A stretch of DNA of 64,000 nucleotides from an uncultured Lachnoclostridium sp. Lineage in GTDB: Bacteria; Bacillota; Clostridia; Lachnospirales; Lachnospiraceae. The stretch lies in the NCBI GenBank assembly GCA_937903005.1, contig CALFNR010000144.1:21948-85947 (forward strand), read 5' to 3'. The notes under the pieces are model-generated. The model was not told the origin of the DNA, ran no database searches, and saw only the letters and a list, made by a program, of their open reading frames with translations. Of this stretch, positions 8,997-36,327 are shown piece after piece (within the stretch, counting starts at the first letter, position 1; each line of letters begins with the position of its first letter). The position numbers and the translations under genes are program-made.

Positions 8997-9887
8997 ATGA
9001 AAAAGAGAAATTTAGCAGTAGTTTTATTAGCAACGACATTATTAGTAGGATGTGGAACAACAAATAATGGTGAAGCTCAGGACGTCCAAATTGAGACACA
9101 AACTAGTCAGGAGAGTGGAGCTACCGCTACTGAAACACCAAAAGAAGAAAGCACCGAAAAGGAAATCAATAAAGTGCTATATGATAACAATGGAATTAAG
9201 GCTGTGTTTACTTCATTCAATCAGAATGGAGCTTATGGACCAGAAATTAAATTACAGCTTGAAAATACAACTGAAAAGAATATAACAGTCCAGGTGAGAG
9301 AAGTCTCAATCAATGGCTATATGATGGATCCAATCTTCTCTGAGGAAGTTGGAACAGGCAAAAAGGCGAATGGCTCAATTAATTTCTTTGAAAGTGACTT
9401 AGAAGAAAACGGAATTGAGCAAGTAAATAGTATTGAATTGTCTCTTCACATCTTTGAGAGCGATTCATACGACACTATTGACGATTCCGAAACAATTAAG
9501 ATTGTTATTAATGATGTAGAAGAGACTAAAAAAGAAGTTACTGGCCAGATTTTACTTGATAAAGACGGCTTAAAAGTAACATATAAAGATATGGTAGTAG
9601 ATGGAGATGGAGAGGTTTCTCTTAAAGTCTTCGTTGAAAATGGCTTAGATACAGAAGCAACAATCCAAGTTAGAGATTGCTCCGTAAATGGCTTTATGAT
9701 TGACCCTATCTGCTCCATCGATGTTGAACCAGGAAAGAAAGCAAATGATAAGATTGGCTTTATGTCTTGGGATTTAGAAGAGCAAGGACTTGAAGGTGTT
9801 GCATTTGAAACTGTTGAATTTACATTACATGTATTCAATGATAATGGAACAATAATGGATGTTCCTGCAACAATCAATTTAAAATAA
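8997..9887 (+). CDS. lipoprotein with tandemly duplicated ~110-aa domain
   Basis: Signal peptide plus lipobox LLVGC. Two internal repeats (..VQVREVSINGYMMDPIFSEEVGTGKKANG.. / ..IQVRDCSVNGFMIDPICSIDVEPGKKAND..). Confidence 0.8.
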   Translation: MKKRNLAVVLLATTLLVGCGTTNNGEAQDVQIETQTSQESGATATETPKEESTEKEINKVLYDNNGIKAVFTSFNQNGAYGPEIKLQLENTTEKNITVQVREVSINGYMMDPIFSEEVGTGKKANGSINFFESDLEENGIEQVNSIELSLHIFESDSYDTIDDSETIKIVINDVEETKKEVTGQILLDKDGLKVTYKDMVVDGDGEVSLKVFVENGLDTEATIQVRDCSVNGFMIDPICSIDVEPGKKANDKIGFMSWDLEEQGLEGVAFETVEFTLHVFNDNGTIMDVPATINLK

Positions 9888-11349: not shown

Positions 11350-11655
11350 ATGACAAGTCGTACATTTGAATATTTAGTAAGGGAAGTATTGAATTGTGAT
11401 CAACCAGAAAGACTATTAACCTTTGGTGGAATTGCAAACTCTGGAATGATTGAGCAAGAGAATGGGTTCTATATGGCTGCAATATCAGCACTGGCAGTTT
11501 TACACTCTCATGCAACTTGCGACCAGGCAAGTAAGATTGATTGTATCATCGAGGAACTATCAGAAACAGAAGGAAAATCCATGGAACAATTAGACAACGA
11601 CTATACGGAAATGATTTACGACAGCATTGTGAAACTAAAGAAAGAAATTTTATAG
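11350..11655 (+). CDS. hypothetical protein
   Basis: 101-aa ORF, GGGGAGG RBS, tightly coupled to the upstream ORF. Confidence 0.5.
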   Translation: MTSRTFEYLVREVLNCDQPERLLTFGGIANSGMIEQENGFYMAAISALAVLHSHATCDQASKIDCIIEELSETEGKSMEQLDNDYTEMIYDSIVKLKKEIL

Positions 11656-23201: not shown

Positions 23202-23251
23202 TTTTATTGTTTATTAATTTATTGACTTTATTTAATGTTATAAGGAGAATT

Positions 23252-25018
23252 ATGAAAAAATTCATTAATAAATTGGCGTTTGTTGCAAAAATTGTATTTA
23301 TTCAAAATCATATATACACACTAATATACATATTAGGAATACTTTTATCGGGGCTAGCTCCCGTTATACAATTATATATTCTAAATTACATTTTAAGGCT
23401 TATGGAGATCGCATTAACCCAGGGACTTAATGACAAATTGGTTCTAAATGGAGTATTAATTCTAGTATCAGAGGGTCTTATATTTACGTTTATTTATGTA
23501 ATTGATATGTTTAAAGATTTGCTTAATCAACTAATGATTGTGCGTGTGAATTATAATCTTCAGGAACAAATAATTAATAAGCTAAAAGATGTAGAAATTA
23601 GCGCATTTGAAGATCCTGAATTTTATGATAACTATTACAATGCTTCTGAACAATCACAGCAAGCTGTTACGCAAATAGTAAATACTGTAACTTATGGTGC
23701 TTCAATACTCATAAGTACATTGGGATATCTTCAAATAATCGCAAATTTTCACCTTGCAGCAATGTTTATAGTTCTCATATCATTTTTACCTAATATTATT
23801 TTTCATTATAAATTTCAAAGTAAAAAATACCAACTAATAGTGCGTGAAGCAAAAAATCAAAGAAAGCTAAATTACTATTATGATATTCTTGCCAAAAAGG
23901 AATATGTGAAAGAAAGCAAAATATACCCTTTACATAACTTTTTTGAAACTAAAAGAAAAATAACCTTTAAAAAATACTATGAACATTATAGAAAAATAAA
24001 TTCAAAAGAATTTAATGTAAACTTATTGCTAAATATGCTGGGACGAACTGGACGTTCACTCTGTATTATATGGATGTTTATTGATATTGTACATGGAAAT
24101 TACGATATTGCAGGATTTGCTACTTTTTTTAACGCTACATCATCTTTGGACAACTCTTTGAAGTCAATGGTAGCGTTTACTTCTATGGCAAAATCGTCTT
24201 GGATGATGTTGGACTTTTTTATGGACTTTTTGCAATATGAACCACGCTTAATAGGTGGGGAAATAAATGTGCAAAAGAGACAATCACATAAAATAGTGTT
24301 CGAGCATGTTTGGTTTCGATATCAAAATGAGGAGAGCTATGCTCTAAAGGATATCTCTCTTGAATTTAATACTGGCGAACTGACTGTGATATTAGGAATG
24401 AATGGAAGCGGAAAATCTACATTGCTTAAATTGTTACTAAGATTGTATGACCCTCAAAAAGGGAGTATTTTTCTGGATGATAACAATATAAAAAATTATA
24501 AACTAGATGAGTTATATTCCATCTATTCTGTAATATTTCAAGATTTTAATCGATACTCTGCGACACTCTATGAAAACTTAACATTTAGTATAAAACGTGA
24601 TCTTAATTTAAATCATCAATACATACTAGACCTTCTAAATTTTTTAGATACTTTAAGTGAAGGAGTAGACACTGAATTAACACAAGTTTTTGAAGAAGGA
24701 AGTGAATTATCTGGAGGACAATGGCAACGTGTAGCATTATCGAGAATGTTACTCAAAGATGCTGATATTATGATATTAGATGAACCAACCTCTGCCTTAG
24801 ATACGTTCTCAGAAAACTATATTTCAAATCTTCTTCGAAATCAAAAAAACAAGATGATTGTTTGTGTTACCCATAAATTATTCTGTATTGAGGAAGCAGA
24901 TAATATAGTGTTCCTAGAAGATGGGGAACTAATAAGCCAGGGAAAACATTCAATACTAATTAATTCCTGTGAGCAATATAGGCAATTATATAATCTACAA
25001 TTTGGGAATAAAGAATAG
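23252..25018 (+). CDS. ABC exporter, fused permease/ATPase (no C39 peptidase domain)
   Basis: N-terminal multi-TM half. Walker A GMNGSGKST, signature LSGGQWQR, Walker B IMILDEPTSALD. ATG 23252 follows AAGGAG. Confidence 0.9.
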   Translation: MKKFINKLAFVAKIVFIQNHIYTLIYILGILLSGLAPVIQLYILNYILRLMEIALTQGLNDKLVLNGVLILVSEGLIFTFIYVIDMFKDLLNQLMIVRVNYNLQEQIINKLKDVEISAFEDPEFYDNYYNASEQSQQAVTQIVNTVTYGASILISTLGYLQIIANFHLAAMFIVLISFLPNIIFHYKFQSKKYQLIVREAKNQRKLNYYYDILAKKEYVKESKIYPLHNFFETKRKITFKKYYEHYRKINSKEFNVNLLLNMLGRTGRSLCIIWMFIDIVHGNYDIAGFATFFNATSSLDNSLKSMVAFTSMAKSSWMMLDFFMDFLQYEPRLIGGEINVQKRQSHKIVFEHVWFRYQNEESYALKDISLEFNTGELTVILGMNGSGKSTLLKLLLRLYDPQKGSIFLDDNNIKNYKLDELYSIYSVIFQDFNRYSATLYENLTFSIKRDLNLNHQYILDLLNFLDTLSEGVDTELTQVFEEGSELSGGQWQRVALSRMLLKDADIMILDEPTSALDTFSENYISNLLRNQKNKMIVCVTHKLFCIEEADNIVFLEDGELISQGKHSILINSCEQYRQLYNLQFGNKE

Positions 25019-25060
25019 TGAAAACTAATCTATAAAATATATTAAAAGGGGAGTACATAT

Positions 25061-25246
25061 ATGTTAAAAAAATTAAATCATTCAAATGAATTGCAAAAAG
25101 GTAGCGCATTAGCCAAATGTGCATGTTTATGTATCTGTTTTGGTAGTAAAAAAGTAGGATTTGCCGTAACTGGTTCGGAAAATGGTATTCTTACAATGGC
25201 TGCATTAGATTTAGAAGAGGATATTTTAAACTTTATTCTAAAATAA
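25061..25246 (+). CDS. putative RiPP precursor peptide (61 aa, CxCxCxC)
   Basis: GGGGAG RBS. MLKKLNHSNELQKGSALAKCACLCICFGSKK.. Lies between the exporter and the radical-SAM maturase. Confidence 0.6.
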   Translation: MLKKLNHSNELQKGSALAKCACLCICFGSKKVGFAVTGSENGILTMAALDLEEDILNFILK

Positions 25247-25290
25247 ACCGTATAGTAATTTTATATTCTCATTATTCTTTATTCCTTAAT

Positions 25291-25321
25291 CTATAATAAG
25301 CAATAAAAATGCTTATTATAG
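25291..25321 (+). promoter_or_regulatory. perfect 12-bp stem hairpin between precursor and maturase genes
   Basis: CTATAATAAGCA-ataaaa-TGCTTATTATAG with no U-tract after it. Confidence 0.6.
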
Positions 25322-25350
25322 AGAAAATACTATGTAAGTTGGAGGAGACT

Positions 25351-26691
25351 ATGATATACAAGTTATTAACTGTTGACTCAGAAAAATATATATATGATGC
25401 ATATGATAACATTACCGTGCAAATAAGTGATGAATTATTCGATATGATTAATAATGGAATTTGTAATCATAGGTATCATGAACTTATAGAGCAGTTTGGT
25501 ATAAGAGATATATATCAGGATAAACACCTAAGCAGATCTGATTATGTTCATTCGGATGAATATAAATGGCAAGTGCAAAATTCTCAGAAACAATTAGTCC
25601 TTTCTATTACAGAAAATTGCAATATGAGATGTGAATACTGTGGTTATTATGATAAACGTTATGAAAAAAACGATCATAATATATCAGATTCTATGAGTGA
25701 ACATACTTTAAAAGCTGCCATTAAAAAATTCTTAACATGTTCCAGAGAAATGGATGTTGTATACATATCATTCTACGGTGGGGAACCTTTATTGAAGTTC
25801 GACCTAATACAAACAGCGGTTAAATTTGTAAGAGAAATGCATTATGGCCAGAAAATATGTTTTACAATTACAACAAATGGTCTTTTACTAACCCCAGATA
25901 TAGTTCAATTTTTTGTGGAAAACGATTTCACGATAACGATTAGTCTCGATGGACCAAAATATGTTCATGATAAATACCGCCTAGATGCAAATGGTAATGG
26001 TACTTATACAAGAATTATTAATAACATCATGTATATCAAAAAGAACTATATAAATTATTATGAACACAACATTCGTTATAATGTTGTACTGATAGAGCAT
26101 GACAAAAAAAATGAAATTGTTGATTTCTTTTACCACGAAAGTGTTAGCTATTTAGGTTTAAGTCTTACTAACCATTTTCGTGAAAAGTATAAAGACACAA
26201 TAAACTACTACAAAAATAAAGAAGTGCATTTAGGTGACGAAGTAGCTTCAGCTTTTTTTAATGTAGAAAAAGATATTAGACAACTAATCAAATTTTGTAA
26301 AATTGGAAGAGATGATGAACATAAAGTTTATATGCCCGCAGCCTATTGTTTACCATATGAAAGAAAGGTCTATGTTACTGCAAATGGTTCTCTGTATCCT
26401 TGCGAAAAAGTACCTGAAACTGCAAATTATATGTTGGGGAATCTTGAGGATTGGAACAATATCGAAGCTGTATCATCTGTAATTGAAAAAAGCTATAATA
26501 CTTATTGCAAAAAGTGTGCCAATTGTTGGGCTCAACGCTTTTGCGGAATGTGTTTTGCTAATGAATCAATAATTGAGGATAAGTGTGATGAAACACGTGC
26601 TAATATTGAGAAGAGCTATTCATTCTTCTTGAGTAAGGAATTTCAAGAAAGCAATATGTACAATAAATTATTACAAATTGGATTAGACTAG
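25351..26691 (+). CDS. radical SAM / SPASM-domain peptide maturase
   Basis: CNMRCEYCGYY (CX3CX2C), SFYGGEPLL, C-terminal Cys cluster ..SLYPCEKV..CKKCANCWAQRFCGMCF. ATG 25351 follows GGAGGAG. Confidence 0.85.
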   Translation: MIYKLLTVDSEKYIYDAYDNITVQISDELFDMINNGICNHRYHELIEQFGIRDIYQDKHLSRSDYVHSDEYKWQVQNSQKQLVLSITENCNMRCEYCGYYDKRYEKNDHNISDSMSEHTLKAAIKKFLTCSREMDVVYISFYGGEPLLKFDLIQTAVKFVREMHYGQKICFTITTNGLLLTPDIVQFFVENDFTITISLDGPKYVHDKYRLDANGNGTYTRIINNIMYIKKNYINYYEHNIRYNVVLIEHDKKNEIVDFFYHESVSYLGLSLTNHFREKYKDTINYYKNKEVHLGDEVASAFFNVEKDIRQLIKFCKIGRDDEHKVYMPAAYCLPYERKVYVTANGSLYPCEKVPETANYMLGNLEDWNNIEAVSSVIEKSYNTYCKKCANCWAQRFCGMCFANESIIEDKCDETRANIEKSYSFFLSKEFQESNMYNKLLQIGLD

Positions 26692-26723
26692 AAGCAAATA
26701 AATGAAGGGGAGGATAAATACAT

Positions 26724-28403
26724 ATGGATTTAAATAATATTAGTATGTATTCAGGAAAAAACAAAAGAATTGCCGTAATAGATACAGGCGTCGCATTAAA
26801 AAGTCCTAATATTCATCATTACATGGTTGACGCTCAAAATACTTTTAATGAATGCCACACTTCCTTCATCAAAAATATGCATGGGACATATTGTTCATTA
26901 AGAATTTTGAGTGAACTACCAGAGATAGAGCTTTATTCCTATTGTGCATGTAATAGGGATGGAGAGATAGATATTAATTTAGTGAAATTGGCTATAGAAT
27001 CTGCAATTCAAAACTCTGTTGACGTTATAAATATTAGTTTAAAATTTGATAAATTTTCAGAATCATTATATAATACCTGTAATAAGGCGTATGAAAGCAA
27101 TATCATTATTGTTGCTGCATCGGATGGAAACTTATCATATCCGGCTAATCAAAGAAATGTACTAAGTGTTAGTTCACAAAAATTATTAAAAGGTAATGAA
27201 GTTTTTATAGAATTTGAAAAAGGAAATATAATTCTATATGATAAAGACTTTACTTGTAATTTTGAAGGAAGAAGCATCGTTGTCCCTGTTTCTAGCAGTC
27301 TTGCAAGTGCATATTTAAGTTGCAAAATTATATCTGCAATAAATGAATATCCCCTACTATCTGGGAAAATGCTTTTCCGAAAACTATTAGGGGTTGATCT
27401 TTATTGTGATACTTGCCAAGAAATAGCTGATACAATAAATCCAAACACTTTAGTATTTGATTCATCATATGCATTTACTGAGTTACTAAAATTTCATAGC
27501 TGTATGAATAAAAATATTAAAGGTTACTATGACATATCTAAGGATATATTTACTGATTTTTCAGGAAATGAGTTATTAGATACTTCTGATAGTTTTCTAC
27601 TAGAAGTCAACTCTTCTATAAAAGAGAAAAATTCAGTATACGCTCAGAAAAGACTAAATATTGGTAACCATTCGCTTATTGGAAATTTTACCAATCCTGA
27701 AAATTATGACACCGTTACACTATTACAGCATAAACCGCCAGAGATAGCGTATATAGAAAAGATTAGTAAGCCTATAATTTGCATTTGCGGCTTTGGCCAT
27801 AGTAGTTCAAAGTTCTATACACAAGTAATGCTACATAAACAATTTCTTAATAAAAATAATGCACCTATTTCAATTACTTATAATTCTTTAGGGTACATAT
27901 TCGACTTTAAAGTGTTTAAATATCCTGAAAAGATAATACTTCCAGACTTAATCTATTCCATTAATCAGGATTTATACCTATATGATTCACAATATGTCGA
28001 TAACGATATTTTTATCATTGACATTGCTGGAGGTATCTGCCCTATTAATAATAAAAATAATAACAACTTTGGGAAGCTTTTTGATTCCTACACCGACGCT
28101 GCAAATATTGATATTGTGGTGTTATGTATTAACCAAGCAATTGATCCTATTGTAATTGAGCGCGAAATAAAGAGAATTGAAATGAAAGGCATACCATATA
28201 TCTATTTAGTAATTTCGAATGAATGTTACACGCAAGCGTCACTGGTGCATTCAGACGGCGTTAAGAGTGTATATAAAAATTCGATTTCTGAAAAAGAATT
28301 TTATTCAATGTATAAAGAGATATTTTACAAATACCCAACCTACTTTAAAAGTGACTTGGATAGCGGAAACTTGTTCAATGATATATATAAACTTTTTGTG
28401 TAA
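26724..28403 (+). CDS. subtilisin-like (S8) peptidase fused to a ~330-aa uncharacterised C-terminal domain
   Basis: IAVIDTGV (Asp), MHGTYCS (His), AASDGN (Asn), SSSLASAY (Ser) in the first ~220 aa. I recognise no motif in the rest. Confidence 0.7.
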   Translation: MDLNNISMYSGKNKRIAVIDTGVALKSPNIHHYMVDAQNTFNECHTSFIKNMHGTYCSLRILSELPEIELYSYCACNRDGEIDINLVKLAIESAIQNSVDVINISLKFDKFSESLYNTCNKAYESNIIIVAASDGNLSYPANQRNVLSVSSQKLLKGNEVFIEFEKGNIILYDKDFTCNFEGRSIVVPVSSSLASAYLSCKIISAINEYPLLSGKMLFRKLLGVDLYCDTCQEIADTINPNTLVFDSSYAFTELLKFHSCMNKNIKGYYDISKDIFTDFSGNELLDTSDSFLLEVNSSIKEKNSVYAQKRLNIGNHSLIGNFTNPENYDTVTLLQHKPPEIAYIEKISKPIICICGFGHSSSKFYTQVMLHKQFLNKNNAPISITYNSLGYIFDFKVFKYPEKIILPDLIYSINQDLYLYDSQYVDNDIFIIDIAGGICPINNKNNNNFGKLFDSYTDAANIDIVVLCINQAIDPIVIEREIKRIEMKGIPYIYLVISNECYTQASLVHSDGVKSVYKNSISEKEFYSMYKEIFYKYPTYFKSDLDSGNLFNDIYKLFV

Positions 28404-28454: not shown

Positions 28455-29195
28455 ATGAACGAAAATTATATAAGAGGAATTATTAAAAAGAAGAATTTTG
28501 AACTTGATGATGAATATTACAATAGCATCGCTGCATTAAAAGACTTAAATAAGTTGGATTTTAATAGACCCGTCACATTTTTCGTTGGAGAAAATGGTAC
28601 TGGTAAATCTACTGTTTTAGAAGCAATCGCCGTTGCTCATGGTTTCAATCCAGAAGGTGGGAGTATAAACTTTAATTTTGAATCTAAAAGTACACATTCT
28701 AACCTATATAAGCAACTTACACTAGTTAAAGGAGCTAAGAGACCCAAGGATGGCTTTTTCTTACGTGCAGAGAGCTTTTATAATGTTGCTACCGAAATTG
28801 ATAATTTGAATGACTCTGCAGATGTATTTTTGGACAACTATGGCGGCAAGTCATTGCATAAACAATCTCACGGAGAGAGCTTTCTATCACTAATACAATA
28901 TAGATTTCATGGCAACGGATTATACCTGTTAGATGAACCAGAAGCTGCTTTATCGCCACAACGTCTCTTAACAATGCTCATATATATTAATAAATTAGTA
29001 CAAGAAAATTCACAATTCATAATCGTAACCCATTCTCCAATTTTACTAGGTTATAGAGATGCTGACATTTATTCATTTGACAACGGAGAAATTGAAAAAA
29101 TAAAGTACGAAGAAACCGAAAGTTATTTTATAACTAAAACATTTTTAGATGATCCAGATAGAATGCTGGCCAATCTATTTGACAACGATTATTAA
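28455..29195 (+). CDS. stand-alone ABC/SMC-head-like AAA ATPase
   Basis: Walker A GENGTGKST, SHGES signature-like loop, Walker B LYLLDEPEAALS, THSP. No TM or partner permease. Confidence 0.75.
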   Translation: MNENYIRGIIKKKNFELDDEYYNSIAALKDLNKLDFNRPVTFFVGENGTGKSTVLEAIAVAHGFNPEGGSINFNFESKSTHSNLYKQLTLVKGAKRPKDGFFLRAESFYNVATEIDNLNDSADVFLDNYGGKSLHKQSHGESFLSLIQYRFHGNGLYLLDEPEAALSPQRLLTMLIYINKLVQENSQFIIVTHSPILLGYRDADIYSFDNGEIEKIKYEETESYFITKTFLDDPDRMLANLFDNDY

Positions 29196-29376: not shown

Positions 29377-30408
29377 ATGAGAATAACAAAAAGATTTGAA
29401 ATTGGAAGTCAGCACTTAATGGCGAAAGGAACTCTTAAAGTAAAGAGCTACTTTGAAGAAAACGACATTTTATATATGGTTTACACTTTAAATGAAGACC
29501 CAACTGAATATACTAACAAATATGTAAATGTGATTTCTATCATTTACAAATGGCAAAAGAAAAATGGTATTACATCGGCAACTACTGTTGAAGAGTTCGT
29601 TGAATTAACATTAACAAGAAGTCTTAAATTTGGCCTAGAAATGGAGCTTACGGTTCCATCTAAAGAGCTTCTTAGAACAAAACTAATTGAAGCCGGCGTG
29701 AGAGTATCTAATCCATCATCTACACACGAAGTTGTTGTTGGTTGGAAACTAGTATATGATGGTTCAATCCAAACTTCTAGGGGTTATGAAGGCGTAGAGC
29801 TTGTTGCTCCACCAAGTACAAATTTTGATGAATTAGAAATCGTATGTAAAGTTCTTAATGAGATCGGAGCAAAAGTAAATAATTCTTGCGGGTTACACGT
29901 TCACCATGAAATCGCTGATTTCAAAAGACAACAAATTCTTAGAATGTACAATTTCTATAGCAAATATGAAGAGGTAATCAATAGCTTCATGCCTGCTTCA
30001 AGATTAAATAATAGATATTGTCAACCTGTTTCTAGAATCATCGATAAAGTAAATAACTGCCCTACTAAAGAAAAATTACTAAAAGATATTGCGGGTAAGG
30101 GTGCAAGAGGTTATTATGATAGTTGTAGATACTACACAATGAACTTAAGAAGTTACCTGTATTATGGTACCATTGAGTTCCGCCAACATGCTGGGTCTAC
30201 AAACTTCGAAGAAATCTCAAATTGGATTCTATTCACTCACAAAATCTTAGAAAGAGGATTAGAGATTGGAAACAATGTTCAACCATTAGATAGTAGCATT
30301 ACTACTAAAAAGGCTAAGTACGAAGAGCTTAAAAAGGAACTTAAAATTGAGAGAACTAAATTAGCAAAACACTTTGAAAATAGATTAAAGAAAGCGAGAG
30401 TGGCCTAA
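29377..30408 (+). CDS. putative amidoligase (Amidoligase_2, glutamine-synthetase-like fold) with N-terminal phage-specific domain
   Basis: GLEMELTVP, WKLVYDGSI, GVELVAPP, CGLHVHHE, YYTMNLRS, GTIEFRQHAGS. The N-terminal ~60 aa is paralogous to the ORF at 8765. Confidence 0.65.
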   Translation: MRITKRFEIGSQHLMAKGTLKVKSYFEENDILYMVYTLNEDPTEYTNKYVNVISIIYKWQKKNGITSATTVEEFVELTLTRSLKFGLEMELTVPSKELLRTKLIEAGVRVSNPSSTHEVVVGWKLVYDGSIQTSRGYEGVELVAPPSTNFDELEIVCKVLNEIGAKVNNSCGLHVHHEIADFKRQQILRMYNFYSKYEEVINSFMPASRLNNRYCQPVSRIIDKVNNCPTKEKLLKDIAGKGARGYYDSCRYYTMNLRSYLYYGTIEFRQHAGSTNFEEISNWILFTHKILERGLEIGNNVQPLDSSITTKKAKYEELKKELKIERTKLAKHFENRLKKARVA

Positions 30409-31935: not shown

Positions 31936-32066
31936 GCTTTATAGTTCTTGTAAATATCTAATTAAATGTTCCCGAATTTGCCCTTGCTATGTTATTATAT
32001 AAATCTACCAATCAATACATGCAGATTTTGGAGCTAGAATATGAAACTCACAGAGGAGGTTATAAT

Positions 32067-32438
32067 ATGGATTCAATAGGGGAACGTATTCGCAAATTAA
32101 GAAAATCAAAAGGAATTACACAAACAGAAATACAAGAAAAGACTGGTATTTCTTCAGGAAATATAAGTGAAATAGAAAATGGTAGGTATCTACCATCTGC
32201 TATCGCACTCATGGAGCTATCTAAAATTTTAGAGTGCTCGACTGATTATATCCTGTTTGGTGATTCTCACCCACCTAAAAGTACTAGCAATATTTCTAAT
32301 AATGAAATATATTTACTTAATGAACAAGAAGCTCGCTTATTAAATTATTATCGTGAAATATCTAAACCAGAACAAGAAGAACTAGTTTGTATTGCAAAGA
32401 TGAAATTTAATAAAGAATTGAGAATATTTGATATATAA
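32067..32438 (+). CDS. XRE-family HTH transcriptional regulator (candidate phage repressor)
   Basis: IGERIRKLRKSKGITQTEIQEKTGISSGNISEIENGRYLPS. ATG 32067 follows GAGGAGG. No S24 peptidase-like C-terminus. Confidence 0.85.
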   Translation: MDSIGERIRKLRKSKGITQTEIQEKTGISSGNISEIENGRYLPSAIALMELSKILECSTDYILFGDSHPPKSTSNISNNEIYLLNEQEARLLNYYREISKPEQEELVCIAKMKFNKELRIFDI

Positions 32439-32500
32439 ACCGAATGATATGTAAATTATCACAAAAATAACTGTATACTTCGTTAAATTGTTGCTATTTT

Positions 32501-32529
32501 TTGACGAAAATTCTTCTCTGTGGTATAAT
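32501..32529 (+). promoter_or_regulatory. consensus sigma-A promoter of the agrC-like/agrD-like operon
   Basis: TTGACG-N17-TATAAT with TGg extended -10. Confidence 0.65.
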
Positions 32530-32558
32530 AATAGAAAAAAATATACAGGGGGGATTTT

Positions 32559-33935
32559 TTGAAATCGTTATTTGTTATTCTAATTCTTCTATGCAGACTT
32601 ACAGAACCCTTTGTATGGGATTGGTTCTGTTCTAAGCTTGCGTGCACATTGGTTATAACAAATACAAAAGATAAAAAGAAAAGCTTATTACTATTCATTC
32701 TTGCTTGTTTTGGAAGTTTCCTGATAAGTGATTTTATTGGAGAATTAAACGTTCTATCATTCTTGTTTAATAACTCCTTAATAGTTATTTTTTACTTTTA
32801 TGCGGTTAGGGTTTATCATCTTAACTTCAAGATTGTTTGTGGCTGTTTATCTATTCACTACATATTTTCTTGCTTTACGGAGTATCTTCTTTCGTTCTTA
32901 CAGATTATTATTTTCAACTCATTAAGAATTACTTCGTTTGAACCGTCACTAACACGATGTATTATGTATATTATTTTTACGGTGCTTTCCTTCTTGGTTT
33001 TCTTTTTTCTATCAAGGTTGGATCTACATGCTCTTTGTGCCTTGGAGCATGACCGTATCTTTTATACTTTAGTTTTCGTTTTTACATTGGACATATTTGC
33101 CTTTTGCTTGTTTTCCTGTATTCCTAACGAAAACATTTTTAACATTGGGACATTTGTATCTCTTATGATAGAGGTAGCCGTTACTTGTCATGCTTTACGA
33201 ATGTTATTTCTGGATGTTAATACTTTAAGAAATTTTGAAACCGAATTACTTTGTACGAAAAATAGGCTTGAAATGTTTCAGTTTGACGCGGATAAATTAG
33301 AACAGACTTCTAAATTCATGCATGATGTGAAACACCACATTAATACAATTTCTTATTACCTGGAGCATGACGACATGAAGTCTGCAAAAGAGTATATTTC
33401 GGGTCTTACACCTGCTATGGACGATTTGCGTATCGAAGACTTTGGTTACAACCGCTTTAGCAACTTGATTCATAAGAAAGTACTTGAGGCTAAAAGTCAT
33501 GGGATTGATTTTACCTTTTCGAGCGAACTTATTGATTTAAAGATTCCACTTTATGAACTTAGTTCTGTATTTAACAATTTACTAGATAATGCAATCGAAG
33601 GGTGCCTGGCCAATACCGCCTCGACTTATCACAATATTTCCTTTTTCATTCGTAAAATGCCTACGGAAATATTGATTATTGTTATCAATGATTGCCTGCC
33701 TACTTTAGATGGTGTTCCTACTGGAACCACTAAAGACGATAAAGAAAATCACGGTTTTGGCATTGGTATTATTACTGATTTTGCATATAAGTATTCCGGT
33801 GATTCGTTTATTCTTGCGGAAGATAGTCTTTTTATGGTGCAAATAAGTTTACCTCTCAATTATGGGGTTTGGGAGGAAAACGATTCAATTGACACCGAAA
33901 TTACCGATTTAGAATCTTCACTTGATTTAACTTGA
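32559..33935 (+). CDS. agrC: AgrC-like membrane sensor histidine kinase (GHKL)
   Basis: ~200-aa polytopic N-terminus, H-box SKFMHDVKHHINTI, N-box FNNLLDNAIEG, G-box ENHGFGIGI. TTG start after a G-rich RBS. Confidence 0.75.
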   Translation: MKSLFVILILLCRLTEPFVWDWFCSKLACTLVITNTKDKKKSLLLFILACFGSFLISDFIGELNVLSFLFNNSLIVIFYFYAVRVYHLNFKIVCGCLSIHYIFSCFTEYLLSFLQIIIFNSLRITSFEPSLTRCIMYIIFTVLSFLVFFFLSRLDLHALCALEHDRIFYTLVFVFTLDIFAFCLFSCIPNENIFNIGTFVSLMIEVAVTCHALRMLFLDVNTLRNFETELLCTKNRLEMFQFDADKLEQTSKFMHDVKHHINTISYYLEHDDMKSAKEYISGLTPAMDDLRIEDFGYNRFSNLIHKKVLEAKSHGIDFTFSSELIDLKIPLYELSSVFNNLLDNAIEGCLANTASTYHNISFFIRKMPTEILIIVINDCLPTLDGVPTGTTKDDKENHGFGIGIITDFAYKYSGDSFILAEDSLFMVQISLPLNYGVWEENDSIDTEITDLESSLDLT

Positions 33936-33968
33936 TTTAAGAAGCTTCCTGGGGAGGAGGTGATTTTT

Positions 33969-34115
33969 ATGAAGAAACTAACGACAAAGCTTTTAAGAAA
34001 CTTCGCAGAATCTTCACTTCGTAATGAAGTTTCTTATTGCCATTATTATTGTTATCAGCCAAAAGTTCCACAAATGGATAAAATTGTCGAGCGTTTTGGG
34101 AAAAGAAAAATCTAA
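33969..34115 (+). CDS. agrD: 48-aa AgrD-like autoinducing-peptide precursor (not in ORF track)
   Basis: ATG 7 nt after GGGGAGGAGGTG. MKKLTTKLLRNFAESSLRNEVSYCHYYCYQPKVPQMDKIVERFGKRKI has a leader, a Cys-containing core, then a QPxxP tail. Ends at a bidirectional terminator. Confidence 0.55.
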   Translation: MKKLTTKLLRNFAESSLRNEVSYCHYYCYQPKVPQMDKIVERFGKRKI

Positions 34116-34150
34116 TTTTTTAGCACCAAGAAAGTTCTTGGTGCTTTTTA
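34115..34150. terminator. bidirectional terminator between the agrD-like gene and the recombinase
   Basis: AGCACCAAGAA/TTCTTGGTGCT stem flanked by T6 on the + strand and A-run/T5 on the other side. Confidence 0.75.
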
Positions 34151-34156
34151 ATTTAA

Positions 34157-35140
34157 CTACATTCCAAACGCTTCTAGCAATTTATCTGTGGATTTATCTT
34201 CAAGATAACTCTGTGTTGTGCTGATATCTGAATGATTAGCTAATAACTGCAGTTCTTGTAGTGTAAATCTCTTTCCTAACTTCTCGCACATGTAATGTGT
34301 TCCATTTTCATAGTTATTTAAAGAGCTGTGTCTGAAGCTGTGAGGATTAAACTCTTTTTCTACTCCCATTTCTTTTAATAAGATTTTTCTCCAACTTACG
34401 ATCTGGTTATATAAGGTTTCATAAGCTGCTGGTCCACCATGTCGAGTTTCCCATAAATGCTGTTCTTCATCATTTCTGTGCTCCATATATAAGCCATATG
34501 CTTCCTTAGTAAGTTGGTGATATATAAGACGGAACTTCTTACCTCTTTTTCCTGTTACCTCATTCTTTGTGAAATTAGCTTCGATTGAAATATCTTCTCT
34601 TGTTACCTGGAAAGCTTCGTTTCTACGACATGAGCTGTCATAAAGGAAGGCACAAAGTAAGGCCTCGGAATATCTTTCTTGTTTAACTAATGAATTGTAA
34701 ATGCACATTACTTCTTCGTTAGTCAAGAATATGATATCACGGGCCTTTTCTTTTCTAAGTCCTTTTAATCTATTTGGATTTACCTTGCAATCCTCGAAAT
34801 CCTCTTCGTAGTCATCATCTTCGGCCACAAAGTTGAAGAGGTTTCTGGTAGTTGATAGCATACGATTTATTCTCGCTGCACTCATACCGTTGTCTTGCAT
34901 CCATAACACGAAATTTCTTAGAGCCTTTCTGTTCAAGCGGTATAACTGCTTATTATCCAGTTCTTCCATTATATATATAAGAATTATTCTTGCGTCATTG
35001 TAATATTGCTTGATTGACTTTTCCGATTTTCCTTCGGAACGTATCTGTAGGATATAGTCGTCTAGTAGCTGTTTATTGTATTTATTTACTTTTTCCCATC
35101 TCTCTGGTGTATATATTCGATTATAGGTTTGTTTTGCCAT
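34157..35140 (-). CDS. tyrosine recombinase / phage integrase family
   Basis: N-terminal SAM-like domain. Catalytic pattern ..SSCRRNE.., HSFRHSS, LANHSDISTTQSYL. Confidence 0.9.
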   Translation of the reverse strand: MAKQTYNRIYTPERWEKVNKYNKQLLDDYILQIRSEGKSEKSIKQYYNDARIILIYIMEELDNKQLYRLNRKALRNFVLWMQDNGMSAARINRMLSTTRNLFNFVAEDDDYEEDFEDCKVNPNRLKGLRKEKARDIIFLTNEEVMCIYNSLVKQERYSEALLCAFLYDSSCRRNEAFQVTREDISIEANFTKNEVTGKRGKKFRLIYHQLTKEAYGLYMEHRNDEEQHLWETRHGGPAAYETLYNQIVSWRKILLKEMGVEKEFNPHSFRHSSLNNYENGTHYMCEKLGKRFTLQELQLLANHSDISTTQSYLEDKSTDKLLEAFGM

Positions 35141-35160: not shown

Positions 35161-36327
35161 CTATCTATAAAATTCTTGTGTCGCGTAAATCTTGTTACCG
35201 ATTTTGTAAACTCCAATACCAATACTAGAAAAGTTATTGGATAAGATATTTGCTCGATGTCCAGAAGAGTTCATCCAGTTAGTCATGAACTGTTGAGCTA
35301 ATCCAGATCTATTAGTCATCCAAGCAATATTTTCACCCCACGCTCGATAAGAAACTCCATCAGCCTTCATTTGCACTGTGATAAGATTTCCGTTTAGGTC
35401 CTCATGAGAGAAATAATTGTTATCCCCCATATCTTTAGATTTGATACGAGCGTATTTCTGCATTGTATTGTTATAAGATAGTGCTGGTAATCCATTCGCA
35501 GCTCTTTCTTTATTTACGATCTGGAATATCTCTTGCTCTACCGTAGCAATGAAATTAGATTCATTAACTTCTGGCTTAACTTCTGGTTTTGTTTCCGGCG
35601 TTACCTCTGGTTTAATGGAAGGCTTATCATTAGGTTTAATTACTGGAAATGACGGCCTTACTATTGGTGTACTAGGAATTTCAGATGGCTTTTCAACTGG
35701 CTTGTTAGGCGTTTCTGTTGAAGGCGGAGTCACTGGTTTATTTTCTGGAACTGGTGGTTTTTCTGTTGGTTCCTGAATGCCAGGTTCCTCACTTGGTTTT
35801 GTCTCTGGTTTTATAACCTCTTCTTCATCATCTGGCTTTGTTTCCGGCTTATCTTCCGGTTTGATTTCTGGCTTAATCTCTGGGTTTTCTTCCTTGTCTG
35901 GAACTACAACCGTGTCTTTATCCGGTTCCTTATTTGGTTTTTCAGTATTAACACTTGACTCTGGTTTCTCAGGTTTATTGAATGTGCCATTAATCACTGC
36001 GTCCACACTAACGATATTTTGTTGTATAGAACTAGAGATATGATTGAAATCTGGTATTTCACCTTTGACTTCCCCAGTCTCCTTATCAACGATTTCTAAA
36101 CCGTCTTTTCCTGGAATAATTGCGATATTCTCTGATACAAATAGATCTAAGCTAGATTCTCCTTCATTCTCATTGGAATCGGTTGAATTGTCTTGTTCGG
36201 TTTCTAATACGATTGCTTCATCTGTTGGTAAATTTGGTACTGTATCATTAGTAAAAGTATTTAATTGTGCAGCGCTCATGGCTACCATGATTGTCCCCAT
36301 TACAAATCCTAATACTTTCTTTTTCAT
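35161..36327 (-). CDS. secreted CAP/SCP (YkwD-like) domain protein with Pro/Glu/Lys-rich linker
   Basis: Signal peptide, KPEIKPEIKPEDKPETKP.. low-complexity linker, C-terminal CAP pattern (NKERAANGLPAL..YFSHE..GENIA..GHRANIL). Confidence 0.8.
   Translation of the reverse strand: MKKKVLGFVMGTIMVAMSAAQLNTFTNDTVPNLPTDEAIVLETEQDNSTDSNENEGESSLDLFVSENIAIIPGKDGLEIVDKETGEVKGEIPDFNHISSSIQQNIVSVDAVINGTFNKPEKPESSVNTEKPNKEPDKDTVVVPDKEENPEIKPEIKPEDKPETKPDDEEEVIKPETKPSEEPGIQEPTEKPPVPENKPVTPPSTETPNKPVEKPSEIPSTPIVRPSFPVIKPNDKPSIKPEVTPETKPEVKPEVNESNFIATVEQEIFQIVNKERAANGLPALSYNNTMQKYARIKSKDMGDNNYFSHEDLNGNLITVQMKADGVSYRAWGENIAWMTNRSGLAQQFMTNWMNSSGHRANILSNNFSSIGIGVYKIGNKIYATQEFYR
35577..35970 (-). repeat. coding low-complexity P/E/K/T repeat region
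   Basis: Repeated (K/E)P(E/D)xKP units. This creates the spurious + strand G/S-rich ORFs 35549..36403. Confidence 0.7.

Follow-up and report, generated by a model that had tools for sequence, protein, structure and literature searches.

A divergent AgrD-type peptide gene and its AgrC-type kinase as a probable signalling cassette in a Lachnospiraceae phage

Genes of the agr type have been described in the temperate Clostridioides difficile phage phiCDHM1, which carries agrC-agrB-agrD without agrA (agr3; Hargreaves et al., 2014, PMC3901668). A further reduced arrangement, agrD2C2, occurs in Clostridium autoethanogenum and related acetogens; the operon lacks agrB and agrA, and in C. autoethanogenum its processing has tentatively been attributed to AgrB1, whose gene lies at another site of the genome (Piatek et al., 2022, PMC8748961). 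Here, we describe a related locus in a stretch of 64,000 nucleotides of contig CALFNR010000144.1 from an uncultured Lachnoclostridium sp. (referred to as the window), which belongs to a temperate phage. It comprises a gene for an AgrC-type (HPK10) sensor histidine kinase of 458 aa (32559..33935, + strand) and, directly downstream, an agrD-like gene for a 48-aa precursor (33969..34115, + strand). It is likely that the divergent AgrD-type precursor and the AgrC-type kinase form a self-contained signal-plus-receptor cassette with its own promoter. Because the variants of the peptide change together with the sensor region of the kinase, the virus probably carries its own channel for cell-to-cell signalling.

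The locus shares several features with phiCDHM1. In both temperate phages of Clostridia, the agr-type genes lie in an accessory region near recombinase and lysis genes, the peptide gene follows that of an AgrC-type kinase, and agrA is lacking. The AgrD of phiCDHM1 and the window peptide display the sequence Q-P-K-x-P one residue after the five-residue ring and a basic tail. Unlike in phiCDHM1, no agrB was found in the window phage (~80 of 86 kb covered), and the two kinases share only 29% identity across 58% of their length. Compared with the AgrD of phiCDHM1, which has a Ser ring, the window peptide has a Cys as ring residue, a charged leader, and a longer tail. With agrD2C2, the cassette has in common that a signal and a receptor are encoded without agrB or agrA, that processing is proposed to proceed via an AgrB encoded elsewhere, and that a five-residue ring is followed by (Y/H)QPKxP. 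The chromosomal agrD2C2 shows the order D then C, whereas C is followed by D in the window cassette; the agrD2C2 rings use Ser (lactone) and the leaders are hydrophobic, unlike the window peptide.

Since phage-borne agr genes and AgrB-less agrD-agrC pairs are already known, the locus is not a new kind of system. New are the kinase-then-peptide cassette with its own promoter, which is common to chromosome and phage, and the divergent, unannotated AgrD sub-family below curated thresholds, which curated AgrD models and gene callers overlook. In addition, the sequence variation appears to give clear evidence of specificity types, of which the phage would hold its own. To our knowledge, phage agr genes have been known since phiCDHM1 (2014), a function has never been shown for them, and the known cases include AgrB. 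In the gut Lachnospiraceae phage described here, the agr module is reduced to signal and receptor.

The peptide gene and its relation to AgrD

The open reading frame (ORF) 33969..34115 (+) starts with ATG, ends with TAA, and encodes the product MKKLTTKLLRNFAESSLRNEVSYCHYYCYQPKVPQMDKIVERFGKRKI. The predicted layout of the precursor comprises a leader (residues 1–23), a ring (24–28), a P-x-x-P recognition motif (31–34), and a conserved basic tail (35–48). The ribosome-binding site (RBS) GGGGAGGAGGTG (33951..33962, +) was read from the sequence 6 nt 5′ of the start codon, with its GGAGG core ending 8 nt before the ATG, and is kept in all five homologous loci aligned. The first-pass annotation, made from the sequence alone, had noted a strong RBS 7 nt before the ATG; the site is present and conserved, and the spacer counted from the purine run is 6 nt. 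A protein search retrieved an identical peptide labelled only as "hypothetical protein" (uncultured Lachnoclostridium) and two variants. Four allelic peptides, all of exactly 48 aa, were obtained from loci around the peptide variants and the kinase homologues, and a fifth peptide of the same length, encoded on contig L012, differs from one of these alleles by a single leader residue. The length of 48 aa is conserved in seven of the seven loci compared. The pairwise ratio of nonsynonymous to synonymous substitution rates (dN/dS) is 0.07–0.23 in the 48-aa frame, which indicates purifying selection, vs 0.5–3.8 in the other two frames, and most differences in the 48-aa frame fall on third codon positions (e.g., 3/5/23). 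Conserved length, low dN/dS, third-position bias, and the kept RBS together establish that the 48-aa ORF is a genuine, conserved protein-coding gene, as had been assumed in the first-pass annotation. The overlapping ORF 34024..34224 (66 aa), regarded there as an out-of-frame overlap, indeed lacks its ATG in the relatives and displays a dN/dS of 1.2–3.8 in its own frame. Among the 127,996 six-frame positions of the window, the pattern C-x5-Q-P-x-x-P occurs only once, at the peptide ORF, and is therefore a feature beyond chance; QPxxP alone occurs seven times in the six-frame translation.

Out of 18,950 NCBIfam models, TIGR04223 (quorum_AgrD) is the only family matched by the window peptide and three allelic variants. 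All scores are below the cut-off of 19 bits (window peptide 15.6 bits, E 0.014; variants 11.6–13.2 bits), compared with 44.7 bits for the AgrD of phage CDHM1, which served as positive control. When a profile of the family was scanned with HMMER over 1.84 billion representative proteins, one significant peptide was found beyond the family itself (P0009, MKSNNFLSTKNKLLKDFSVNVMKTEVSACGWFLYQPKVPQKVIERFKK, E 2.9e-7). It is encoded 80 nt 3′ of the end of a gene for a histidine kinase, the ATPase domain of which is only 27% identical to that of the window kinase. P0009 passes TIGR04223 (27.5 bits, E 2.5e-6) and thereby provides a transitive, statistically sound link of the window family to AgrD. A further match of the same scan, the 534-aa repeat protein P0010, was rejected as spurious; it shares only the short stretch EVSxC...Y.

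Published clostridial AgrDs consist of a leader and a five-residue ring, followed by (Y/H/Q)QPKCP (PMC8748961, Table S5); the AgrD of CDHM1 reads SVWYI-NQPKMP. In a profile–profile alignment (hhalign) of six family sequences with the published AgrDs, C24 to Q35 were placed onto the ring-forming Ser32 to D43 (P 7.5e-4). An earlier alignment with only the four close variants was weak (P 0.006, 10 columns) and improved after P0009 had been added. The register proposed in the first-pass annotation, in which YQPKVP places the ring at C24–C28, is thus corroborated. In the comparison with curated AgrDs proposed at that time, the peptide itself falls below the TIGR04223 cut-off, and the relationship is carried by P0009 and by the hhalign result. 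According to the alignments and the published register, codons 24–28 (CHYYC; 34038..34052, +) correspond to a predicted five-residue thiolactone ring, and codons 29–35 (YQPKVPQ; 34053..34073, +) contain the Pro-x-x-Pro motif, which has been proposed as the AgrB recognition site (PMC3901668, PMC8748961). C24, Y29, Q30, P31, V33, P34, and Q35 are invariant across the family. The sequence C24-HYYC-Y-QPKVP agrees with the AgrD pattern of a ring Cys or Ser, four variable residues, one further residue, and (Q/E)-P-x-x-P. Varying ring residues next to a fixed Cys and recognition motif, as expected of AgrD, are also seen within the family, in which the rings CHYYC, CHYYF, CHYYL, and CGWFL (the last in P0009) occur and residue 28 is C, F, or L. 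The Cys at the end of the ring, regarded as unusual in the first reading, is found only in the phage allele, all other members having F or L; a single transversion separates its codon from TTT (Phe) in the CHYYF allele. The basic tail, likewise considered unusual, is not, as the AgrD of CDHM1 ends in KSLKKKL. Taken together, the only family matched, the link via P0009, and the profile–profile register support the assignment of the peptide to a divergent, unannotated sub-family of AgrD below curated thresholds.

Kinase, co-variation, and boundaries of the cassette

The stop codon of the kinase gene lies 33 nt 5′ of the peptide ORF. The protein combines about seven predicted transmembrane (TM) helices, as judged from hydropathy and a TM scan, with a C-terminal GHKL domain of the HATPase_c_5 type (PF14501, E 7e-16). 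The His box (FMHDVKHH), the N box (NNLLDNAIE), and the G box (HGFGIGI) were identified. Against the NCBIfam AgrC model NF046015, the kinase gave an E-value of 1.5e-11 over residues 31–383, with a score far below the equivalog cut-off (500 bits, set for staphylococcal equivalogs). Its sole match in the PDB is the kinase module of Staphylococcus aureus AgrC (6E52, E 4.8e-7). The kinase therefore shows the AgrC/HPK10 architecture of a polytopic sensor with His box and HATPase_c_5 GHKL domain. The sensor domain alone, used as protein query, retrieved no relatives outside the clade, and tblastn of the kinase against phage records yielded only distant AgrC-like matches (≤32% identity).

Outside the clade, the closest kinase is P0008 (27% identity), encoded in locus L013 (193–2394), in which a gene for a LytTR regulator, the kinase gene, and a small ORF follow each other. 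The 49-aa product of the latter ends …TQTATCMTFFTIICC, does not contain the P-x-x-P tail, and may represent a different kind of Cys-containing pheromone.

In all relatives, the peptide gene is located directly downstream of a gene for an AgrC-type histidine kinase. The pairing was found in the phage (window) and in the chromosomal loci L005, L007, and L008, and the same order occurs in L001, L002, L003, and L012 as well as in the distant L016, whose kinase is only 27% identical to the window kinase in the ATPase domain. The ORF is thus conserved beside homologous kinases in phage and chromosomal contexts, which disposes of one of the objections anticipated in the first-pass annotation.

The strongest indication of a relationship between peptide and sensor comes from the comparison of the alleles. 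The kinases of L005 (peptide ring CHYYL) and L012 (CHYYF) are 99–100% identical at residues 211–458 and 56% identical at residues 101–150. Conversely, the kinases of L005 and L001, both accompanied by CHYYL, are 54–72% identical in the cytoplasmic half and 80% identical at residues 101–150. On the DNA level, the differences between L005 and L012 are confined to two islands. The first covers kinase codons ~83–175 (75 mismatches in 300 nt), with a synonymous divergence of ~0.7 in its core (codons 101–150), and the second covers peptide codons 1–32 (13 mismatches in 120 nt). The remaining sequence, which comprises the 840 nt of the kinase gene that separate the islands, the codons of the peptide tail, the terminator, and pyrG, shows only 2 mismatches in ~1260 nt. 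The hypervariable kinase segment (in the window 32805..33083, +) comprises TM4, the loop at residues 120–127, and TM5; given seven helices and a cytoplasmic C-terminus, the loop is predicted from hydropathy to face outward. The identity of the sensor segment tracks ring residue 28 and not the overall relatedness of the kinases. The phage allele (CHYYC) has its own variable segment, which is 52–64% identical to all others, so that it would represent a third, distinct specificity type.

The two co-varying islands resemble the situation in the agr groups I–IV of S. aureus with their hypervariable agrB-agrD-agrC, where the alleles likewise differ in peptide and sensor and the kinase domain is conserved. 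For AIP-1 and AIP-4 (autoinducing peptides) of S. aureus, a single ring-residue difference is matched by changes in an extracellular loop (PMC10482373). By analogy, the co-variation argues that the peptide is the ligand of the adjacent kinase. Unlike in S. aureus, C precedes D here, so that ~840 nt of identical kinase-domain DNA lie between the variable islands, and neither an AgrB component nor AgrA-dependent P2/P3 promoters or RNAIII are present.

The cassette is preceded by a putative promoter (32501..32529, +) consisting of TTGACG, a 17-nt spacer, and a TG-extended TATAAT (11 of 12 consensus matches in a consensus scan). It is kept in the phage, L005, L008, and L001, although the DNA upstream is unrelated. 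The homology of the phage and chromosomal copies starts at ~32496, just 5′ of the −35 box, and ends just after the stop codon of the peptide gene, where each context has its own terminator. From these exact limits, it follows that the mobile unit consists of promoter, kinase gene, and peptide gene (~1.63 kb, ~32496–34122). In the phage context only, an intrinsic terminator with a 10-bp stem (AGCACCAAGA/TCTTGGTGCT) and a T-run follows (34122..34155, +; hairpin and T-run at 34122–34145); the chromosomal copies carry a different hairpin 3′ of the peptide gene. A hairpin over the RBS of the peptide gene (33944–33961) was considered as a regulatory element and rejected, as it is absent from the chromosomal copies. 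No conserved sequence upstream of the −35 box is shared between the contexts and hence no candidate repeats for regulator binding were found; together with the near-consensus promoter, this suggests a constitutive rather than an autoinduced expression.

In the phage, the cassette is located between an XRE-type repressor-like gene (31989..32438) and a gene for a tyrosine recombinase (34157..35140). The copies in the window and in L009–L011, which derive from other samples, display no mismatch over 1627 nt, that is, the identical cassette occurs in several independent metagenomes. In the chromosomal setting (L005, L007, and L008), it is located between a gene for a leucine-rich repeat surface protein and pyrG, with kinase and peptide being 82% identical to the phage copy. 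The cassette has probably moved between a Lachnospiraceae-type chromosome and a temperate phage of ~86 kb. Its GC content (33.0% vs 34.9% in the window) does not stand out and gives no clue to the direction of the transfer. In L005, the chromosomal cassette is bracketed by a 24-nt direct repeat (TGGGGCTGTyGCTTTAACGATTGA, 9790–9813 and 11563–11586, 96% identical, 1773 nt apart), which overlaps terminator-like hairpins and may be a mark of cassette insertion or a route of loss. In one chromosomal variant (L006, 336–2431), a second HATPase_c_5 kinase and a 171-aa response regulator without recognisable DNA-binding domain are encoded about 8 kb upstream of the cassette, at a position at which NeuB-type genes are found in another variant.

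None of 50,697 phage records matched the locus in a DNA search at near-identity, and a kinase-based search detected no related loci in the viral, genome, or metagenome contig sets. With a degenerate DNA pattern for the tail QPxVPQxDKIVE, no match was obtained in the genome and viral contig sets and a single contig (L012) was found in the metagenome contig set. The family is rare: at the stringency used, it is absent from the GTDB species representatives and nearly absent from the JGI metagenomes.

Missing partners, alternative readings, and the proposed mechanism

A complete agrBDCA locus is not present in the window; only C and D are found. This and several other observations weigh against the reading as an AgrD–AgrC pair. 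A tblastn search of the window with AgrB, AgrD, and AgrC of CDHM1 returned only the kinase, the AgrB matches being noise. AgrB was found neither in the window nor in ~80 of the 86 kb of the element nor in the chromosomal flanks, and PF04647 is missing from the Pfam lists of the phage (~80 of 86 kb) and of the chromosomal flanks. No LytTR or Response_reg domain adjoins the cassette in the phage or in the chromosome. With respect to the peptide, the sub-threshold TIGR04223 score is accompanied by the lack of any Pfam match. The maximum hydrophobic moment of the leader (0.47) is reached by 8.4% of shuffled sequences and is not significant; the leader is charged and does not contain the hydrophobic stretch of typical clostridial AgrDs, and the conserved, basic tail of 14 residues is longer than usual. 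As to the kinase, its topology is based on hydropathy alone, and the AlphaFold2 model (predicted local distance difference test score, pLDDT, 48) was unusable and could not place the variable segment. The pairing of CHYYF with its sensor type is taken from one co-assembled contig (L012), whose phasing across 840 identical nt could result from misassembly; on two independent contigs, L002 and L003, the CHYYF peptide is likewise found beside the conserved kinase C-terminus. Apart from the kinase and an ATP-binding cassette (ABC) exporter, no likely gene with at least three TM segments was detected in the window and ~15.6 kb of element flanks. Since neither AgrB nor a regulator is linked, maturation and output must rely on unlinked, presumably host, genes, a situation for which agrD2C2 and, with regard to agrA, phiCDHM1 offer precedents.

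Among the alternatives, the one that survives best retains the peptide as a pheromone sensed by the kinase and dispenses with the AgrB-made thiolactone. Export and trimming would be accomplished by other means, such as a general protease or the phage ABC exporter, and the active form would be a linear peptide or, for the phage allele, a C24–C28 disulfide. This agrees with AgrB being unlinked in every context, with the presence of the phage ABC exporter and an S8 peptidase ~5.5 kb upstream, with the two Cys residues four positions apart in the phage allele, and with other HPK10 kinases that precede small peptides without an AgrD motif, e.g., in L013. However, the chromosomal alleles and P0009 contain a single Cys, which rules out a disulfide as the chemistry shared by the family. 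There is no GG in the peptide and hence no leader like that of the double-glycine pheromones (ComC/BlpC/PlnA type), which C39-peptidase ABC exporters cleave. The exporter of the phage is not found in the chromosomal contexts, and its alignment with a peptidase–ABC model is confined to positions 121–669, so that the peptidase domain is missing. The invariant Cys-x4-YQPxVP register and P0009 passing the AgrD model point to an AgrB-type processing instead. We consider this alternative improbable, in the linear form as well as in the disulfide form.

Somewhat lower still is the probability that the 48-aa product is not secreted and modulates the membrane domain of the kinase from inside as an accessory protein, similar to other small-protein regulators of kinases. 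No processing enzyme is encoded in cis, the leader is charged and not hydrophobic, the entire C-terminal tail is strongly conserved, and the co-variation with TM4–TM5 could reflect contacts within the membrane. On the other hand, the peptide does not contain a hydrophobic segment for membrane insertion, and the concentration of the variation in the four ring residues next to a fixed Cys and P-x-x-P is the pattern of AgrD. Given the AgrD homology through P0009, this explanation is the less likely one.

A role of the peptide as precursor for the radical-SAM (S-adenosylmethionine) machinery of the phage, which would produce a ribosomally synthesized and post-translationally modified peptide (RiPP) and to which the adjacency of the kinase would be incidental, is very unlikely. 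A radical-SAM/SPASM maturase, the S8 peptidase, and the ABC exporter are indeed encoded in the window (23207–28403), and a different radical-SAM RiPP cluster lies ~4 kb from the chromosomal cassette. However, the RiPP cluster of the phage has its own Cys-rich precursor (25061–25246), pyrG and ftsH separate the chromosomal cassette from the other cluster, and the peptide gene travels with the kinase gene and not with any radical-SAM gene, within exact cassette boundaries that exclude the RiPP cluster. A chance open frame within the 3′ untranslated region, for which one could invoke that the gene callers missed the peptide gene in public phage contigs and that neither a Pfam nor a PHROG match exists, is refuted by the kept length, RBS, and stop codon, the dN/dS of 0.07–0.23 with mostly third-position changes, and the relative P0009 recovered from 1.84 billion proteins.

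Following the reading as an AgrD-type precursor with its AgrC-type kinase, the cassette would be transcribed from the near-consensus, sigma-A-type promoter, the conservation of which suggests that it is active. As judged from family membership and register, cleavage of the precursor would occur after residue 28, and a five-residue thiolactone (CHYYC in the phage) would form between C24 and the new C-terminus. Cleavage and ring closure would be catalysed by an AgrB-type peptidase encoded elsewhere in the host, which would recognise YQPKVP and the conserved tail. After trimming of the leader, the peptide would presumably be released and bind to the outer face of the kinase around TM4, the loop, and TM5, the segment that co-varies with ring residue 28. 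The kinase would then signal to an unlinked response regulator, presumably of the host. A phage-specific ring and sensor type would let phage-carrying cells signal among themselves. If the phage allele is active without a linked AgrB, phages would tap the pheromone-processing machinery of their hosts for a channel of their own. The three natural alleles, distinguished by a single ring residue and a single sensor segment, make cross-activation and cross-inhibition testable.

A more far-reaching interpretation, which we put forward only tentatively and regard as possible rather than probable, is that the borrowed agrC–agrD pair constitutes a private channel of the phage, made and heard only by carriers by means of the AgrB and the response regulator of the host. 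The CHYYC ring would have a free thiol at the position where all bacterial alleles are hydrophobic. If this applied, the channel would allow the phage or phage-plasmid to count carriers and to tune the maintenance of lysogeny, induction, or accessory genes such as the nearby RiPP cluster; it would be a function like that of arbitrium built from agr parts. Arbitrium (AimP/AimR) of SPbeta-like phages is similar in that a secreted phage peptide with phage-specific variants is used, which could report the density of related phage genomes. The parts are unrelated: arbitrium consists of a linear hexapeptide and an intracellular receptor of the RRNPP type, in contrast to the AgrD-type precursor and the membrane histidine kinase described here. 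The 149-aa XRE protein encoded upstream of the cassette matches AimR only through the helix-turn-helix domain (17.5 bits, cut-off 70), and the gene upstream of the peptide gene encodes a membrane kinase and not an AimR-type receptor.

The host element and neighbouring genes

Several assemblies independent of one another yielded the element at ~86.1 kb, on contigs of 86,018–86,139 nt. In the regions viewed (the window, L018 1–8100, and L020 1–9500), the phage structural and lysis genes are accompanied by a large set for replication and nucleotide metabolism (PolIII alpha, gyrase/topoIV-like subunits, NrdD/NrdG, FolD, ThyA, dCMP deaminase, ligase, and RNase H), and a Rep3 initiator and a TubZ-like tubulin are also encoded. 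The "integrase" has an N-terminal domain of the XerC/D type. Because of the Rep3 initiator, the TubZ-like tubulin, and this domain, the element may persist as a phage-plasmid rather than integrate.

The RiPP-like cluster of the phage (23207–28403, +), 5.5 kb upstream of the agrC–agrD cassette, comprises genes for the ABC exporter (603 aa), a 61-aa Cys-rich ORF (25061–25246, …AKCACLCICFGSKK…), and a radical-SAM/SPASM maturase, which is akin to CcpM and to the lachnocin maturase (scores of 254 and 246 bits, both below the equivalog cut-offs). In the product of the last gene, an S8 peptidase is joined to a TIGR04066 "peptide maturation" region. The cluster near the chromosomal cassette (L007, 5816–11181) encodes a Clo7Bot_mod_Cys peptide, a radical-SAM enzyme, an acetyltransferase, and an ABC exporter and is located ~4 kb away, past pyrG and ftsH. 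That a radical-SAM peptide cluster lies only a few kb from each cassette copy may be a coincidence.

Between the recombinase gene and the holin and amidase genes of the phage, a secreted CAP-domain protein with long Pro/Glu/Lys-rich repeats is encoded (35161–36327, − strand), which belongs to PHROG family 16914, labelled "moron / sporulation protein". Upstream of the cassette, a gene for an AAA ATPase (28455–29195, +), which weakly resembles PtuA and defence ATPases of the AbiEii type, is followed by a gene for an Amidoligase_2 protein (29377–30408, +); both are possibly accessory or defence genes of the phage.

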